Shown piece by piece: positions 8,683 through 64,000 of a DNA stretch of 64,000 bases (positions within the stretch are counted from its first letter, which is position 1; every line of letters begins with the position of its first letter). The notes under the pieces are model-generated. The model saw only the letters and a program-made list of their open reading frames with translations. It was not told where the DNA came from and made no database searches. A program made the translations under genes and the position numbers. The stretch comes from an uncultured Thermoleophilaceae bacterium (GTDB lineage Bacteria > Actinomycetota > Thermoleophilia > Solirubrobacterales > Thermoleophilaceae), in the NCBI GenBank assembly GCA_963729205.1, contig CAVSNA010000003.1, forward strand, positions 1 through 64,000. Reading direction: 5' to 3'.

Positions 8683-9597
8683 CGGCTCCCGACGCGCGGA
8701 TCGTCGCCGAGGGCCTGATCTGGCCCGAGGGTCCCGCGCTGCTCGACGACGGGAGGATCGCCTTCGTCGAGACCTACGCGAGCAAGGTGTCGGTGTGGTC
8801 GCCCGAGGAGGGCGTGCAGCTGCTGGCCGACACGGGCGGGGGACCCAACGCCGCCTGTCTCGGCGACGGCGGCTACCTGTACGTGACCCAGAACAGCGGC
8901 CTGGTCGGCGCATGGCGCGCCGAGCGGATGCAGCCGGGCTGCATCCAGCGCGTGTCGATCGCCGACGGCAGCGTGGAGGTCTTCGCCACCGAGGTCGACT
9001 CGCTGACGCTGCGGATGCCGAACGATCTGGCGCTTCGGGCCCGATGGGCGGCTGTACTTCAGCGATCCCGGACTGTGGGACCCGGACGGAGAGCGGCCCG
9101 ATCCTGGGTACATCGTCGCCCTGGACGTGAACACCGGGCTGGGAGAGGTCCTGGTCGAGCTCGAGCCGGTCTATCCGAACGGAGTCGTGGTGGAGCGCGA
9201 CGGCTCGGTCGTCTGGGTCGAGTCCTATACGCGGCGCGTTCGTCGCCTGCTCGCCGGGGGCGAGATCGAGGACCTGGCCACCTTCGAGGATCCGCTGGCG
9301 GTGCCCGATGGCCTGGCGATCGCCGCCGACGGCGACCTCTACGTGACGGCTCTCACCGCCGGAGGCCTGCGCATCGTGGGAGCCGACGGCAGCGACCGGG
9401 GCACGGTCGACGTGGGGGCGGTGCCGAGCAACTGCTGCTTCGCCGGAGACCGGCTCTTCATCACCGATGGGGGCGACGTCAGCGGCACGGCGGGGAGCAC
9501 CGCGCCCAACGGCCGCCTATGGTGCGTGGAGCTTGGCGTGGAAGGGCAGGAGTTGTTTCGCGGGGCCCCGGCAGGTCCCGAAAACCGCAGCGTCTAG
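8683..9597 (+). CDS. SMP-30/gluconolactonase/LRE-family beta-propeller hydrolase, with one frameshift near 9040
   Basis: EGPALLDDGRIAFVE, DGGYLYVT, PNDLA...GRLYFSDPG, PNGVVVERDGSVVWVESY, PDGLAIAADGDLYVT. Confidence 0.6.
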
Positions 9598-44651: not shown

Positions 44652-45556
44652 TCAGTCGCTCTCTGCTTTCTGCTCTCCGCTCTCGCGCGCGCCGTGCGGC
44701 ATCGCGCTGAGGAGCGCTGGAGTGGCGCGCTCGAGCGCCTCCCAGCCGATGTCGCGCTCGCGCTCCTCCCGCTCGGCGGCGGCGCCGCCGCGGAAGCCGA
44801 ACAGGCGCTTGGCCCGCAGCAGGTAGAGGACGACGGCGACGTTGATGATCAGCGTGAGGACCTTCAGCACGCGATCCCTTGGTCACGATCTCGTAGATCT
44901 CGAAGGGGATGAACGCGGTGGTGGCGATGAAGGTCAGGTATTCGGCCCAGCGCTTCTGGAACCAGAGCCCGACGGCCTCGACTCCCTCGATCGCCGCGTA
45001 GATCCGCGACCACGATGCCGATCTTGGTCAGCGTGCCGCGCTCGATCGAGAACACGTGGCGCAGCTCGTCGATCACGCCGTGGTGGCGATGGGCGGGGCC
45101 GCCGAGCCCGCTCTCGAGGTCCGACAGCGCGCGGAACACCGGCTCGCGAAGGTGAGCCGCGTTCGCGGCGAACAGCAGGATCACCACCGCGAGGGCGGCG
45201 AGCACCACGAAGTGGAAGGCGCGGTCGATCGCGATCAGCCGCAGCACGACCTTGTCGCGCAGCGCCTTCCCGCGCAGCGGCAGCTCGATCTCGTCGCGGT
45301 CGGGCGGGTGGCGCCGGGTGGGGTCGGACGGCCGCTCCAGCAGCAGCCAGCTGTCGCAGCGCACGCAGCGGTGCCAGCGCAGCCCGTCCGGGCCCTCGCG
45401 CGCGACAAGCGCGTCCTCCGGCCGCAGCTCGGCGGCTCCGATTCCGATCAGCTCGTGCCCCGAGGACCCGCAGACGATCAGCTCCCAGTGCAGCTTGGGG
45501 CGGAAGCGGCGTGGCTTCTCGGTGCCGGGCGGCTTCGAGGGCGCGCTCGCCATGGC
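44652..45556 (-). CDS. Hypothetical membrane protein (zinc-ribbon-like N-terminus CGSSGHE...RCVRCDSW, two or three TM helices), with a frameshift near 44900
   Basis: An ORF fragment pair sharing conserved hydrophobic segments (FVVLAALAVVILLFA, VLTLIINVAVVLYLL). No catalytic motif. Confidence 0.4.
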
Positions 45557-56666: not shown

Positions 56667-56675
56667 GGGGACTCG

Positions 56676-56795
56676 GGTGTCGGGTCTCGGGTGTCGGGAC
56701 CGCCCGCGTCCTTTCTTACGTTGACGTAGCCGGTCTTCTCGGGACATGGTCGGGTTGAAAGCCCCGACACCCCAGACCCGAGACCCGACACCCGG
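56676..56795. repeat. Long imperfect inverted repeat (arms of about 28 nt built from tandem GGGTGTCGGG units, about 55-nt spacer) between the SDR gene and the RpiR gene
   Basis: CTCGGGTGTCGGGTCTCGGGTGTCGGG at 56678-56704 pairs with CCCGACACCCCAGACCCGAGACCCGACACCCGG at 56763-56795. Confidence 0.55.
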
Positions 56796-56824: not shown

Positions 56825-57689
56825 TTGCCCGTGAGCCGTGCAGGCACAAGCGCGCTGACCCTGTCCGCCGAGATCCGTCAGCGCTTCGACGAGTTCTCGC
56901 GCTCGCAGAAGGACGTCGGCCAGTACATCGTCGACCACCTCGACGAGGCCGCCTTCCAGACTGCCGAGGAGCTGGCGCGCCGGGCGATCCACCTCGAGCT
57001 CGACCGTCGTGCGCTTCGCCCAGGCGCTCGGATTCGAGGGCTTCCCCGAGCTCCAGGCCGCCGCGCGCGACGAGTACCGGCGCGTGCGCGAGTCGGCGCC
57101 GTCGAACGGCGGCTCGGACATGCTCGCGCCGCCGCTGTTCCCGATCGACCAGACCGAGTTCGAGGCGTCGCTCGCCGCCGACCACACGAACCTCGAGGAC
57201 ACCGCGCGCAAGATCGACCGCGACGAGGTGGCCGCCGCGGTCGAGCTGATCTCGCGCGCGGAGCGGATCGTGCTCTGCGGCACCGACCAGATGGCCTTCT
57301 TCGCCAGCTACCTGCGCCACCTGCTGATGCTGCTCGACCTCCGCTGCGAGGTCGTCGCCAGCCCCAGCCAGGAGGGCCTGGCGCGGCTCGGCCGCATCGA
57401 CGAGAGCACGCTGGTGATCGGCTTCTCGGCCGGGCGCCCGCACCCGCTCGTCGTGCGCGCGATGAAGCTCGCCCGCCACCGCAAGGCCGTCGACGATCGC
57501 GATCGCGGACGCCACGCTCTCCGAGGTCGCAAAGCTGGCCGGCCAGCGCTCTACTACTCGTCGAACGGCCCGGCCTACGTGCGCTCGCACACGGCGCTCC
57601 TCAGCCTGATCCAGGCGCTGGCGTACGGCGTGTACGCCCTGGACGAGTCGGCCTACGCCGACCGCATCAAAGCCTTCCGGCTCAAGTAG
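56825..57689 (+). pseudogene. RpiR/MurR-family transcriptional regulator (HTH_6 + SIS domain), with three or more frameshifts
   Basis: VGQYIVDHLDEAAFQTAEELA, VVRFAQALGFEGFPEL (HTH), SIS-domain blocks IVLCGTDQMAFFASYL. Confidence 0.55.
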
Positions 57690-58186: not shown

Positions 58187-59087
58187 ATGGGCCCCGTGAC
58201 CGATCAAGCGACATTCCGCGTCAAGTCCGGCCTCGCCGAGATGCTCAAGGGCGGCGTGATCATGGACGTGGTCACCGCCCGAGCACGCGGCCATCGCCGA
58301 GGCGGCGGGCGCCGCCGCCGTGATGGCGCTCGAGCGCGTGCCGGCCGACATCCGCGCGCACGGCGGCGTGGCGCGCATGTCCGATCCCTCGATGATCGAG
58401 GGCATCCAGGCCGCGGTCAGCGATCCCGGTGATGGCGAAGGCGCGCATCGGCCACTTCGTCGAGGCGCAGGTGCTCGAGGCGCTCGAGATCGACTACATC
58501 GACGAGTCCGAGGTCCTGACGCCCGCCGACGAGGCCAACCACATCGACAAGTGGAAGTTCAAGGCGCCCGTTCGTCTGCGGCGCCACGAACCTGGGCGAG
58601 GCGCTGCGGCGGATCGCCGAGGGCGCCGCGATGATCCGCACCAAGGGCGAGGCCGGCACCGGCAACGTCGTCGAGGCGGTGCGCCACATGCGCGCGATCC
58701 AGGGCGAGATCCGCCGGCTCAGCTCGCTCGACGAGGCCGAGCTGCCCACCGCCGCCAAGGAGCTTCAGGCGCCGATCGAGCTCGTCCGCGATGGTCGCCG
58801 AGAAGGGCAGCCTGCCGGTCGTGAACTTCTCGGCCGGCGGCATCGCCACCCCGGCGGACGCCGCGCTGATGATGCAGCTCGGCGCCGAGGGCGTGTTCGT
58901 CGGCTCGGGCATCTTCAAGTCCGAGGACCCGGAGCGCACGGCCGCGGCGATCGTCGAGGCGACCACGCACTTCGACGACCCCGAGCGCCTGGCCGCCGCC
59001 TCGCGCGACCTCGGGGCAGCCGATGGCCGGGCATCGAGATCTCGCGAGCTCGGCGAGTCGGGCCTGCTCCAGCACCGCGGCTGGTAG
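58187..59087 (+). pseudogene. pdxS: Pyridoxal 5'-phosphate synthase lyase subunit PdxS, with five or more frameshifts
   Basis: [117 protein letters not shown]. Confidence 0.7.
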
Positions 59088-59667: not shown

Positions 59668-60776
59668 AGGACCAGCGCGCCGACAGCGCTCGCCCAGATC
59701 CTCGTCCACTACTCCACGAAGGTGCAGAAGGGCGAGATCTGCGTGATCCAGTCCACGACCACCGCCGAGCCGCTGGTGCAGGCGGTCTACGAGGAGGTGC
59801 TGAAGGCCGGCGGCCTGCCGATCGTGCAGCTCACCCCCGAGGGCGCCGCCGCGGCGTTCTACGAGCTGGCCAGCGACGAGCAGCTCGAGTGGGTCGCGCC
59901 CACCGCCGCACTGGGCGGTCGAGGAGGCCGACGTCCGCATCGCCGATCCTGGCCGACGCGAACACGCGCGGCGCTCTCGCAGGTCGACCCGGCGAAGCAG
60001 GCGCAGACGCCAGCAGGCGCGCAAGCCGCTGATGGAGACCTCGATGCGCCGCAGCGCCGAGGGCGACTACCGCTGGGCGCTGACCCTCTTCCCGACCCAC
60101 GCCTACGCCAGCGAGGCGGGCATGTCGCTGTCCGCCTACGAGGACTTCTACTACGACGCCTGCCTGGCGACCGACCCCGAGCCGCTCACCGCCTGGCAGC
60201 GCCAGTCCGACCTGGTGCGCAAGCTCGCCGACTGGATCGAGGGCAAGGAGGAGGTCCACATCCAGGCGCCCGGCACCGACATCAAGCTGGGCGTCGCCGG
60301 CCGCACCTGGATCCCCTGCGTCGGCGACCGCAACATGCCCGACGGCGAGTTCTTCACCGGTCCGGTCGAGGACTCGGTGGAGGGCGAGGTCAGCTTCTCG
60401 TTCCCGGCCGTCTACGGCGGCCGCGAGGTGTCGGGCGTGCAGCTGCGCTTCGAGGACGGCAAGGTCGTGGACGCCTCGGCGGAGCGCGGCGAGGACTACC
60501 TGATCGAGATGCTCGACTCCGACGACGGCGCCCGCCGCCTCGGCGAGCTCGGCATCGGCACCAACTACGGGATCACCACCGCCACCAAGGAGATCCTGCT
60601 CGACGAGAAGATCGGCGGCAGCGTGCACATGGCGATCGGCATGAGCTACCCGGAGACGGGCGGCCAGAACAGCTCCGCGGTCCACTGGGACATGGTGTGC
60701 GACCTGCGCGCAGGGCGGGACGATCACGGTCGACGGGGAGGTGCTGCAGGAGAACGGGCAGTTCGTCGTCAGGTAG
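59664..60776 (+). pseudogene. M29-family (AmpS/PepS-like) aminopeptidase, with three or more frameshifts
   Basis: GEICVIQSTTTAEPLVQAVYEE, AIGMSYPETGGQNSSAVHWDMVCDLR. Confidence 0.55.
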
Positions 60777-60814
60777 GCGCTCAGCGCCGCCGCTGGTGCG
60801 CCGACGCGGTTCGG

Positions 60815-60935
60815 CGGCAATAACGGCAGCCCGAGGCCGTCTCGGCGATCGATTGAACGATTTGGGGTGCTATAGCACCCCAAACCGTTCAATCATCGAC
60901 CGACCCCGCTTCGGGCCGCCCTCATTGCCAGCGGT
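60815..60935. repeat. Palindromic element of about 120 bp, copy B (core GATTGAACGATTTGGGGTGCTATAGCACCCCAAACCGTTCAATC)
   Basis: About 80% identical to copy A at 31061-31190, including the outer inverted arms GCAATAACGGCAGCCCG / CGGGCCGCCCTCATTGC. It lies between convergent gene ends. Confidence 0.6.
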
Positions 60936-60971
60936 AGACGCAGATGCCTGATCGGCGCCCGGGGCCAACCG

Positions 60972-63933
60972 CTACCGCAGGCTGAAGCTCGTGACGTTCC
61001 GCCCGCTCCGGAAGGCCTCCGCCAGCCCCGTGTCGTCAATCGCCTGCGACCGCACCGTGTAGGTGCCCCGCGGCAGCAGGTGGGGGATTCGCAGCGTCCA
61101 GCGCAGGCCGTCGGTCACCCGGGCGTTCAGGTACTGCGGCTGGGAGCAGCGCTTCTTCACGAGGTGGGCTCCGCGCGTGAGCCAGACGCACCTGCCGTGG
61201 CCGACGCTGCGCGAGACCGCCACGCGCACCTGCACCACCCTGCCGTTGTCCTCGCTCGTCCCGGCCACGAGGTGCACCTTGCGGCGCAGGTTCGTGCCGA
61301 ACGGCTCGCCGATCAGCGACGTGGGGGGTAGGTCGAGGCCCGCGCTGACCTCGGCGAGCGCGCCCGTGGCCAGGTCGCGGCGGTAGATCCGGCCCTGGGA
61401 GGTCGGCGTCTCGCCCGCGACCACGTTCGCGGCGCGCGAGGAGAAGGCCACGAAGTGGCCGTCGGCGCTCACCGCCCCCTGGGTGCTCGGGCCGGCCAGG
61501 CCCGTGCCGTCGGGGTGGGCGGAGACCATGACCGTCGCCGCGGTGGCGACCGTGCGGGCGAAGACGTCGGCCGTGCCGTTCGAGTCGCCCAGCACCAGGT
61601 TCGAGGCGTTCGACGTGAACACCGCCAGCGAGCCGTCGGCGGAGATCGAGTCCGCGGTCGAGTCGCCGTTCGCGCCCGAGCCGTCCTTGCCCTGGCTGAC
61701 GAGCGTGACCTCGCCGGTGGCCATGTCCTTGCGGAAGACGTCGATCGTGCGGCCGTTCAGGTTGCCGCCGGGGAGGTCGGTGGCGTCCGAGTCGAACAGC
61801 ACGTAGCGGCCGTCCGCCGAGATCTTCGGGTTCTGGCCGTTGCCGTCCGAGCTGGTGGCGCCCGCGGGCACGTCGACGAGCGCGATCTCGCCACTGATCA
61901 TGTCCTTGCGGTAGATGCCGGCGCGGTCGCCGTCGCCCGGCACCAGCCCGCCGGCGTCGCTCGTGAACGCCACGTAGCGGCCGTCGGCGCTGATCGAGGG
62001 CTGGCCGGAGCTGCCCACGGTGTTCACCGAGTCGCTGATAGGGGTGGACACGCGCTGGAGCGTGCCGCTCGGGATGTCGCACCAGTAGACGTCGGGCTGC
62101 AGGTCCCGGTCGCGCCCGGCGAGCGTGTCGGCCCGCGACTCGAAGGCCACGTGCTGCCCGTCCGCGCTGATCACCGGGTTGCCGGCGTCGCCGTCGCCCG
62201 CCCGGCAGGCGCGCTGGTTCTGGCCGCTGAAGAGGTCGCGGCGGAAGATCGTGTAGGCCGGCACGCCGCCGGTGAGGTCGCGGAGTGTTGCTGGTGAAGA
62301 CGGCGTAGCGACCATCCGCGCTGAGATCGCCCGCCGGCCCGCGGCGGAAGCGGCCACCGCGACTGGCCGAGGCCCCTGAGCGCTTCGCGTCGGCCAGCAT
62401 GTTCTTCCCGGTGGCCATGTCGCGCACGAACGGATCGGTACGGGCGCCGTTCGAGTCGGCAGCCACGAGGTTGTCGGCGTCCGAGGAGTAGCCCGACGAA
62501 GCGCCCATCGCCGCTGATCGACGGCGCGCTGGCGCCCCCGTCCGGAGGAGACGGGGAGAGCCGGTTCGGCAACGGATCCCCCGCCCGGCGTGGCTCGGGC
62601 CTGTGGACTGTGGACCGTGGACTGTGGACTGCGGCCGCCTTGGCGGCCGCAGCCCGGCACCACATTCGGCACCCCAGGCGGCCAGACCTCGGACGACGGG
62701 TGGTAGAAGTGGCCGAAGTCGGCCTCGTGGAACTGCGAGGTGAAGACCTCGCAGTTGCGGTAGACGCCGCGCCGCGCCGGGTTGATCGCGACCACGTCGA
62801 AGCCGCGGCCGCAGTCCACGTAGGCGCGGCCGTTCGGGTCGGTGGTGTCCCCGCCCAGCAGGTTGATCACGTCGTTGCCGGTGCCGGCCAGGATGCGATC
62901 GCCGTCGTAGGCGCCCTGGATCAGGTCGTCGCCCGGGCCCGCCCACCAGCAGGTCCGCGCCCGAGCCCCCGGCCAGCTCGTCGTTCCCGGGCGGCCCGGC
63001 GCTGGGCGAGCGGGCATCGCCGTAGAGCTTGTCGTTGCCGGAGCGGCCCGCCAGGCGGTCGTTGCCCGAGCCGCCCATCAGCAGGTCGTTGCCCGGTGTG
63101 GCGCCGTCGCCCTCGAGCTCGTCCTGGCCGCCGCCGCCGAACAGGCGGTCGTTGCCGCCCTTGCCCTCGATGAAGTCGTTGCCCGAGCCGCCCGCCAGCG
63201 TGTCGTTCCCGTTGTGGCCGAGGATCTGGCGCATCGGGAAGGCCGCCGTGGGGTCCACGTTCACGATGTGCTCGCAGCCCGCCGACTCGGGTATCGAGGC
63301 GTCCGCCCGGCCGGTGGAGAGGCCGTCGCTCGAGGAGTGGCGGACGCGGTAGACCGTGTCGTTGCCGGGCCCGCAGTCGAAGGTGTCGCGATTCGGGCCG
63401 CCGTAGAGCGTGTCGTCGCCCGGGCCGCCGTAGAGGTGGTCGCTGCCCGAGCCTCCGATCAGCACGTCGTTGCCGGTGCCGCCGAAGATGTAGTCGCCGC
63501 CGCGGCCGCCGGCCACGATGTCGTTGCCGGGGCCGCCGTAGAGGTGCTCGTTCACGCCGAAGCGGCGCTCGCGGATCGTGTCGTCGCCAAGCCCACCGAG
63601 GATCGTGTCGTTGTCGTCGCCGCCGTCCAGGTAGTCGGCGCCGCGCTCGCCGTAGATCTCGTCGTTGCCCGGTCCGCCCTGGATCACGTCGCCGTAGGCG
63701 GAGCCCTCCACCGTGTCGTGGCCGTTCTCGCCGAAGAACGTGACCGCGAGCGGCTCGCCGGAGAAGACCGCGTCGTCGCCCTCGTCGGTGCCGCAGGTGG
63801 GCCCTCCGGGCGTGCTCGGGACGTCGACGGAGAACTCGACTCCGCACGCCGAGTGGTAGCTCGTCGCAGCCGCCGAAAAGGCGGGAAAGGCCGCCACGAG
63901 GGCGGCGACGATTATCGCCGGCAGAAGCCGCAT
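60972..63933 (-). pseudogene. Large secreted protein: Sec signal peptide, N-terminal RTX-type calcium-binding nonapeptide repeats, central PD40/TolB-like beta-propeller repeats, C-terminal beta-sandwich domain. Several frameshifts.
   Basis: MRLLPAIIVAALVAAFPAFSAAATS is the signal peptide. GGPGNDEIYGERGADYLDGGDDNDTILGGLGDDTI... are GGxGxDxL repeats. ISADGRYVAFTSDA, ISADGRYVLFDSDA and VSADGHFVAFSS are PD40 repeats. Confidence 0.6.
62601..62634. repeat. Tandem heptanucleotide repeat (TGTGGAC x4-5, imperfect) inside the RTX/PD40 gene
   Basis: CTGTGGACTGTGGACCGTGGACTGTGGACTGCGG. The unit length is not a multiple of 3, so copy-number change would shift the frame. Confidence 0.55.
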
Positions 63934-64000
63934 CGGTCCCGAAACCCACTACTCGGCCCGTTGCTGCGCTCCTCCCCTCGTAAGATGGAATTGCATGGCT

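Follow-up and report, generated by a model that had tools for sequence, protein, structure and literature searches.

A frame-broken gene for a predicted exported RTX-propeller protein, with a heptanucleotide array in its linker, in an uncultured Thermoleophilaceae bacterium

The stretch of DNA analysed here (the window) consists of 64,000 nucleotides (nt) of contig CAVSNA010000003.1 from an uncultured Thermoleophilaceae bacterium. Close to its end, on the minus strand, lies a gene for a predicted secreted protein that combines calcium-binding RTX repeats with a β-propeller (the RTX-propeller gene), and a short array of a 7-nt unit sits within its coding sequence. A preliminary description had proposed that this array makes the gene a phase-variable contingency locus, or else a hotspot for assembly error. 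The gene and its parts are as follows:

60972..63933, minus strand: whole gene for the predicted secreted RTX-propeller protein, 985 codons after removal of four inserted bases
63865..63933, minus strand: predicted Sec-type signal peptide (~residues 1–23), from sequence inspection, hydropathy and a helix at residues 4–22 of the structure model, with a presumed cleavage site
62733..63774, minus strand: RTX calcium-binding region (~residues 54–400), two β-roll blocks and a Cys-containing cap
62537..62672, minus strand: variable disordered linker (~residues 421–465), predicted local distance difference test (pLDDT) score <50 at residues 433–456
62601..62631, minus strand: heptamer array GTCCACA GTCCACG GTCCACA GTCCACA (+GG), codons 435–444, from Tandem Repeats Finder (TRF)
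61320..62536, minus strand: seven-blade PD40-type β-propeller (~residues 466–870), from Pfam PD40, blade motifs and Foldseek
60975..61319, minus strand: C-terminal all-β domain (~residues 871–985) with two conserved Cys, from model strands at residues 870–984 with pLDDT >90

The gene starts with an ATG at 63933 and ends with a stop codon at 60972–60974. It had been described as a single protein-coding stretch of ~980 amino acids (aa), which the window holds only across at least four frame changes. No single open reading frame (ORF) in the ORF listing covers the protein. A 965-aa ORF (61036..63933) encodes the signal peptide and the RTX repeats and then continues as Arg/Pro/Gly-rich nonsense, a 681-aa ORF in a different frame (60972..63017) bears the PD40 repeats, and a third-frame ORF spans the middle of the gene. 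A database search returned an intact 985-aa orthologue, P0001, with 95% identity to the frame-stitched protein, and ~90 more near-full-length homologues of roughly 850–1035 aa. All homologues with a name come from Thermoleophilaceae metagenome-assembled genomes or from soil metagenomes, and they were automatically annotated as [quoted passage not shown]. These metagenomic homologues agree with the window copy in family, length, architecture and synteny, the sole difference being the sequencing errors of the window.

The DNA locus of the P0001 gene (L001) is 94% identical to the window gene at the nucleotide level. Alignment to L001 located four inserted bases, and a compensated pair of 1-nt changes lies within the linker:

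62934, minus strand: inserted base 1, frame shift after residue 334
62651, minus strand: inserted base 2, ~20 nt upstream of the heptamer array
62495, minus strand: inserted base 3, within propeller blade 1
62281, minus strand: inserted base 4, in the region of blade 2
62562..62595, minus strand: compensated 1-nt pair (−1 near 62595, +1 near 62562)

Deletion of the four bases (62934, 62651, 62495 and 62281) yields a 2958-nt ORF free of internal stops, the translation of which matches P0001 without gaps at 96.1% identity over 985 aa. When the 11 codons between the two members of the compensated pair are read in the other frame, identities to P0001 rise from 947 to 952; the pair could stem from another two errors or be a genuine change with compensation. 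All four uncompensated frame breaks are single-base insertions, and each lies outside the heptamer array. A change from frame 1 to frame 2 at the array itself was considered and ruled out, since the DNA alignment to L001 places the inserted base ~20 nt upstream; past 62651, the translation in the next frame agrees with P0001 right through the array.

The ratio of nonsynonymous to synonymous substitution rates (dN/dS) between the restored gene and L001 is 0.097 overall, with 0.05 in the RTX part, 0.07 in the propeller and C-terminal domain, and 0.51 in the linker. The GC content at third codon positions (GC3) of the gene is 98%. By its dN/dS, the RTX-propeller gene is under strong purifying selection. 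Its surroundings are conserved as well: the gene order yebC, RTX-propeller gene, M29 peptidase-pdxT-pdxS is kept in five related loci (L001, L003, L148, L149 and L150), and the synteny holds in orthologues down to ~75% identity.

Frame breaks are not confined to this gene. The coding frame was tracked along the window as a Viterbi path over position-specific GC content (GC3 98%), with a switch counted as stop-less when the abandoned frame had no stop codon within ±75 nt. Over the 64 kb, the path changed frame 68 times within a strand. Of these switches, 49 were stop-less, and 44 of the 49 were shifts of +1, as expected from insertions of single bases. The spurious insertions amount to roughly one single base per 1–1.5 kb of window. 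In pdxS (58196–59075), ORF fragments match successive parts of the Pfam family SOR_SNZ in different frames, and when intact PdxS proteins from two better assemblies are aligned to the window, each falls into five collinear segments that lie in frames 2, 3, 1, 2 and 3. The M29 peptidase gene (59689–60770) and a SIS-domain gene (56831–57686) are split likewise, and many Pfam families match two adjacent fragments. Against L001, the window has 56 gap openings over 9.2 kb of mostly coding DNA. A public 430-aa gene call (P0124, from an NCBI/ENA contig of 121,052 nt) is exactly the translation of window positions 62264→60972 on the minus strand; the errors therefore sit in the deposited record, where the annotated gene is likewise interrupted at insertion 4.

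Because the spectrum of changes is one of insertions only, housekeeping genes are hit equally, and the gene is otherwise constrained, the frameshifts are best explained as sequencing or assembly errors. The locus thus probably represents a syntenic Thermoleophilaceae gene that is present in single copy and encodes a 985-aa exported protein, broken in the window by sequence errors that run through the whole record. We also considered that it might be a genuine pseudogene, with the frameshifts as real mutations in a decaying genome. P0124 shows the same break in the deposited record, and the gene is split in the related assembly L148 too, both of which could be taken in favor of decay. However, the L148 breaks are single-base insertions outside the array at positions that differ from those in the window, and removal of four bases leaves no nonsense codon in a gene with a dN/dS of 0.10. 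Bacterial mutation is generally biased toward deletion, whereas 44 of the 49 frame switches are +1, and pdxS, the M29 peptidase gene and other housekeeping genes are affected equally often. A true pseudogene is accordingly very unlikely.

Two points weigh against attributing the breaks to errors. Error and true mutation were told apart only by inference, based on a spectrum made up of insertions, on damaged housekeeping genes and on the signal of purifying selection. In addition, two or three window indels, along with two of the four in L148, fall within ~70 nt of the array, so that the neighborhood of the linker is unusually indel-prone. (The single-base indels within this distance are at 62651, 62595 and 62562 in the window and at 2938 and 2963 in L148.) Seen in two independent, error-prone assemblies, this clustering may come from difficulties in calling a consensus where the linker is low in complexity and varies between strains, and not from repeat slippage. 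The suggestion of an assembly-error hotspot is correct in part: the gene is damaged by errors, some of which cluster close to the linker, but the number of heptamer copies is not altered by any of them.

The protein itself has the architecture that the preliminary description had assigned to it. At the N-terminus, MRLLPAIIVAALVAAFPAFSAAAT, a single Arg is combined with a hydrophobic core of 17 residues and a c-region of small residues, and sequence inspection revealed neither a twin-arginine motif nor a lipobox. Inspection, hydropathy and the model helix at residues 4–22 agree with the Sec signal peptide proposed earlier, and 67 of 78 homologues have a hydrophobic Sec-type N-terminus by Kyte-Doolittle hydropathy. 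The called N-termini of the other 11 are short or non-hydrophobic, probably as a result of truncated start calls. An AlphaFold2 model built with an alignment of 78 sequences reached a mean pLDDT of 88.4 and a predicted template modeling score (pTM) of 0.86.

The N-terminal RTX repeats were confirmed in the stitched protein by the hidden Markov model of Pfam HemolysinCabind (PF00353), which matched seven stretches with E=5.7e-48. Twelve strict GGxGxDxUx nonapeptides lie between residues 86 and 339. In a sequence comparison with the PDB, the RTX part matches the RTX domain of CyaA (E=5.9e-28) as well as serralysins, lipases and the R-modules of AlgE. In the model, short strands follow each other at nine-residue spacing over residues 54–398, with block-mean pLDDT mostly >80, and form two RTX β-roll blocks separated by an insert (~196–221) and followed by a short helical cap. 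The disordered linker after the cap, 30–45 residues long, cannot be aligned among orthologues.

Downstream of the linker, the propeller proposed from the sequence was found by the Pfam PD40 model (E=6.7e-15), with seven [LIV]SxDGxxxxF blades in P0001 and six in the window protein as first stitched. Foldseek placed it closest to the propellers of S9 peptidases and TolB (E ~1e-12, 12–17% identity). The C-terminal domain is all-β in the AlphaFold2 model, as had been predicted, and the Pfam search gave no family for it; its two cysteines, C914 and C928, are invariant across the 78 sequences. Altogether, the 78 homologues share ten conserved cysteines, of which six are invariant and four are present in ≥90%. 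Conserved cysteines and a Sec-type N-terminus fit an exported protein. The protein would be exported via Sec with cleavage of the signal, its β-rolls would fold outside the cell in a Ca2+-dependent manner, and the ten cysteines may pair as disulfide bonds. No catalytic domain was found in the protein, and similarity to NCBIfam models of RTX toxins, serralysins and TolB is sub-threshold only. The protein may serve in binding or as a scaffold, either extracellularly or at the cell surface.

With the established RTX proteins (CyaA, HlyA, the serralysins and the family I.3 lipases) the window protein shares tandem GGxGxDxUx nonapeptides and modeled parallel β-rolls. RTX exoproteins are defined by carboxy-proximal repeats, an uncleaved C-terminal signal in place of an N-terminal signal peptide, and export by a type-1 secretion system (T1SS) (Linhartova et al. 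2010, PMC3034196). The window protein differs in having its repeats at residues ~54–400 of 985, a C-terminus formed by the propeller and a β-domain, and an N-terminal signal of the cleavable type, as judged by inspection and hydropathy. Its host belongs to an actinobacterial family, and T1SS neighbors were not found within 10 kb in L001, L002 and L003.

The strong homology of the repeats to those of CyaA, serralysins and lipases might suggest a classical RTX exoprotein, exported by a T1SS encoded elsewhere in the genome. This is extremely unlikely. The protein has a predicted N-terminal signal peptide, and the repeats are followed by 560 aa of folded domains with no apparent C-terminal RTX repeats or secretion signal. 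No genes for an ABC exporter, a membrane-fusion protein (HlyD) or TolC were found within 10 kb in L001, L002 and L003, nor among the 25 window families listed, and the ABC fragments seen among these top 25 families pair with an importer-type permease, BPD_transp_2. Six actinobacterial genomes were previously reported to encode putative RTX proteins while lacking homologues of the T1SS (Linhartova et al. 2010, PMC3034196). The protein uses the β-roll as RTX proteins do, apparently without belonging to the family of T1SS substrates. The N-terminal placement of the repeats, flagged as unusual in the preliminary description, does depart from the canonical type-1 substrates, but is not new in principle, having been noted for Actinobacteria in 2010 (PMC3034196). 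A search of the accessible literature for a paper on this protein family found none.

The second half of the protein resembles TolB and the S9 peptidases in its sevenfold PD40 motif, and the best structural matches were an S9 carboxypeptidase (8wt1) and TolB (4r40, 3iax). It lacks both the N-terminal domain of TolB and the α/β-hydrolase catalytic domain of the S9 peptidases. The TolB model TIGR02800 scored 26.8 bits against a cut-off of 343.15, in an alignment limited to the propeller part.

The heptamer array is real, as had been claimed, and spans 62601–62631 with 4.4 copies, but the frame does not change there. TRF reported a period of 7 with 91% matches and a score of 55. Only five TRF rows in the whole window scored ≥50; three of the five correspond to the RTX-repeat region and one to an intergenic period-14 array. 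None of 100 first-order Markov surrogates of the window contained a period-7 array that reached a score of 55, and the array is therefore non-random. L001 and L148 share all of its 28 nt with the window. The encoded peptide, VHSPRSTVHR (codons 435–444), is read in frame and also occurs in P0122 and P0125; in the model, these codons fall in a region with pLDDT <50.

As a contingency locus, the gene would undergo reversible frame shifts after codon 444 through slippage by one unit, and so alternate between a full-length and a truncated, RTX-only product. Several properties of the array invite such a proposal. The length of the unit is not divisible by three, the 4.4 copies exceed the lenient cut-off of ≥3 copies for 6–10-nt units used in Neisseria screens (PMC5084427), and meningococcal pglE provides a precedent for phase variation driven by a heptanucleotide repeat (PMC7157529). 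If L001 gained or lost one unit, its product would be cut short at 465 or 533 aa. The array resembles simple sequence repeat (SSR) contingency loci such as pglE in that a 7-nt unit is repeated in tandem within the coding sequence of a protein that is secreted or exposed at the surface. It differs from them in having four units only, in its position in a mid-gene disordered linker, in its high-GC soil host, and in showing neither length polymorphism nor an OFF allele among five species-level sequences.

Each of the five species-level sequences examined (three at the DNA level, two deduced from protein) has four units. According to the preliminary description, a uniform repeat count in all reads would speak against phase variation; among the assemblies the count is uniform. 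The species cluster comprises only seven members, and neither these nor the retrieved loci included an allele that was out of frame (OFF) at the array. Truncated proteins (P0095, P0096, P0084 and P0078) and cluster members of 430–650 aa were inspected for alleles in the OFF state. P0078 and P0133 were rejected, as they carry error-type frameshifts away from the array, and several other truncated proteins look like contig-edge partials. P0095 ends inside the linker. The frame breaks of the window map outside the array, in a record in which housekeeping genes are frameshifted too; one of the four units is imperfect, and persistence by neutral processes is plausible for a mid-gene array in a permissive, disordered linker. 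Phase variation through the heptamer is thus unsupported, nothing shows the array acting as a switch, and we regard a contingency locus as unlikely. To our knowledge, no SSR phase variation has been described in a high-GC soil actinobacterial lineage.

Unexpectedly, the tract recurs beyond the species. We surveyed the family by applying TRF locally to the 260 nt located 3′ of a conserved QFHEADFG motif. Period-7 arrays of 3.3–5.1 copies occur at the same linker position in many orthologues, with different units:

CAGTCCA in the window, L001 and L148: 4.4 copies
GTCCACA in L124, L125 and L130: 4.1 copies
GTCCACA in L126 and L128: 4.1 copies
CGTTCGC in L003: 4.9 copies
GAGCTCG in L134: 4.6 copies
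TTCCCAG in L135: 3.6 copies
CCGTCAA in L127: 3.3 copies
CAGGCCA in L150: 4.6 copies, 100% matches
GTCGCAG in L149: 5.1 copies
GGTCGCA in L151: 4.3 copies

Units are homogeneous within each array, and between lineages they are one to several bases apart. Homogeneous arrays with lineage-specific units indicate that the tract has been turned over by slippage, in a form of concerted evolution. The arrays of L149 and L151 differ in length by about one unit, and both are in frame. At the protein level, we searched for peptides of ≥8 aa equal to a translation of heptamer-periodic DNA. There were nine matches in 78 homologues, all of them 24–34 residues past the anchor and all in the clade ≥73% identical to P0001; none occurred elsewhere in the 74,082 residues. 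Hypervariability extends over the entire linker and is seen even within clusters of 90% identity (for example, P0121 versus P0001 and P0019 versus P0144). A scan of genome contigs with GTCCACRGTCCACRGTCCAC proved too unspecific, returning at least 119 stretches from unrelated phyla, with no Thermoleophilaceae among the matches listed.

Two loci, L140 (~564–1748) and L144 (2–322), represent a natural short form of the gene that consists of the RTX β-roll part only. The stop codon follows directly after ...FHEADFGFLYRPSPETYP, and next comes a gene for a multi-pass membrane protein instead of the propeller. We considered them as truncations at the linker and rejected this, since they are natural short genes with a different gene next to them.

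In favor of the contingency proposal, arrays at one site with homogenized units (CAGTCCA, CAGGCCA, CAGGTCG, CGTTCGC, GAGCTCG and TTCCCAG) imply that slippage is ongoing, and RTX-only short forms do occur naturally in L140 and L144. The tract might be a slippage switch conserved across Thermoleophilaceae that reversibly truncates the protein to a secreted RTX-only form like that of L140 and L144, a proposal we consider improbable; under such a reading, the tract would stay homogenized through selection for mutability. The linker also bears tandem periods other than 7, namely 12, 15 and 19–20 nt, and a 12-aa duplication (~36 nt) at the protein level, which speaks against a contingency locus. A simpler account is that a microsatellite persists in a disordered linker, in which in-frame outcomes are tolerated and out-of-frame variants are purged. 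On this favored reading, the array is an in-frame microsatellite that slips on an evolutionary time scale and is tolerated because the linker accepts any sequence.

Heptamer arrays are not limited to this gene. Four period-7 arrays in the window, each of about 4 copies, reached a score ≥40, compared to 0.05 expected, and others were found in related loci:

44658–44684, 56673–56698, 56763–56794 and 62601–62631: period-7 arrays in the window
7732–7762 in L003, 1637–1661 in L126 and 669–697 in L129: period-7 arrays in related loci

In 234 kb of Thermoleophilaceae sequences, 21 period-7 arrays reached this score, exceeding any other period below 27. This excess hints at a lineage-wide bias toward 7-nt slippage or at a family of elements.

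Two of the window arrays form an inverted pair (56668–56794) directly after the stop codon of a short-chain dehydrogenase-like gene, with a GGGTGTC-type unit repeated 3.7 times and its reverse complement, CCCGACA, 4.6 times. The pair can fold into an extended stem (RNA folding energy −75.4 kcal/mol, z=−3.4) and is conserved in L001 (17748–17875), a relative at 92–94% identity. L001 also has a hairpin made from tandem arrays of an 8-nt unit (9096–9182), GTACGGAG repeated 5.9 times and then the inverse CCGTACCT 3.5 times, directly downstream of the stop codon of yebC (minus strand); the equivalent site lies just beyond the end of the window.

One further feature adjoins the RTX-propeller gene:

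60816..60929, no strand assigned: imperfect palindrome with 57-nt arms, 77% complementary and without a spacer, from a repeat search

The palindrome fills the gap between the convergent M29 peptidase and RTX-propeller genes and has no T-tract; it may be a bidirectional hairpin. The intergenic region cannot be aligned with that of L001, where the gap is ~800 nt. A promoter and terminator scan of 60700–64000 found nothing, and neither did Rfam and tRNA scans of the window.

The case of the RTX-propeller gene is mainly a lesson in quality control: any frameshift, split gene or “phase-variable” ORF in this window should be weighed against about one spurious single-base insertion per kb. The only point with potential for discovery is the heptamer microsatellite in a coding linker, which is family-wide and turning over. 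If reads were to show length heterogeneity in steps other than multiples of three, it would offer a cheap way into the phase variation of uncultured soil Actinobacteria. The gene itself encodes a well-conserved, uncharacterized protein, predicted to be secreted, of a common soil actinobacterial family, in which RTX β-rolls apparently occur outside the context of type-1 secretion.

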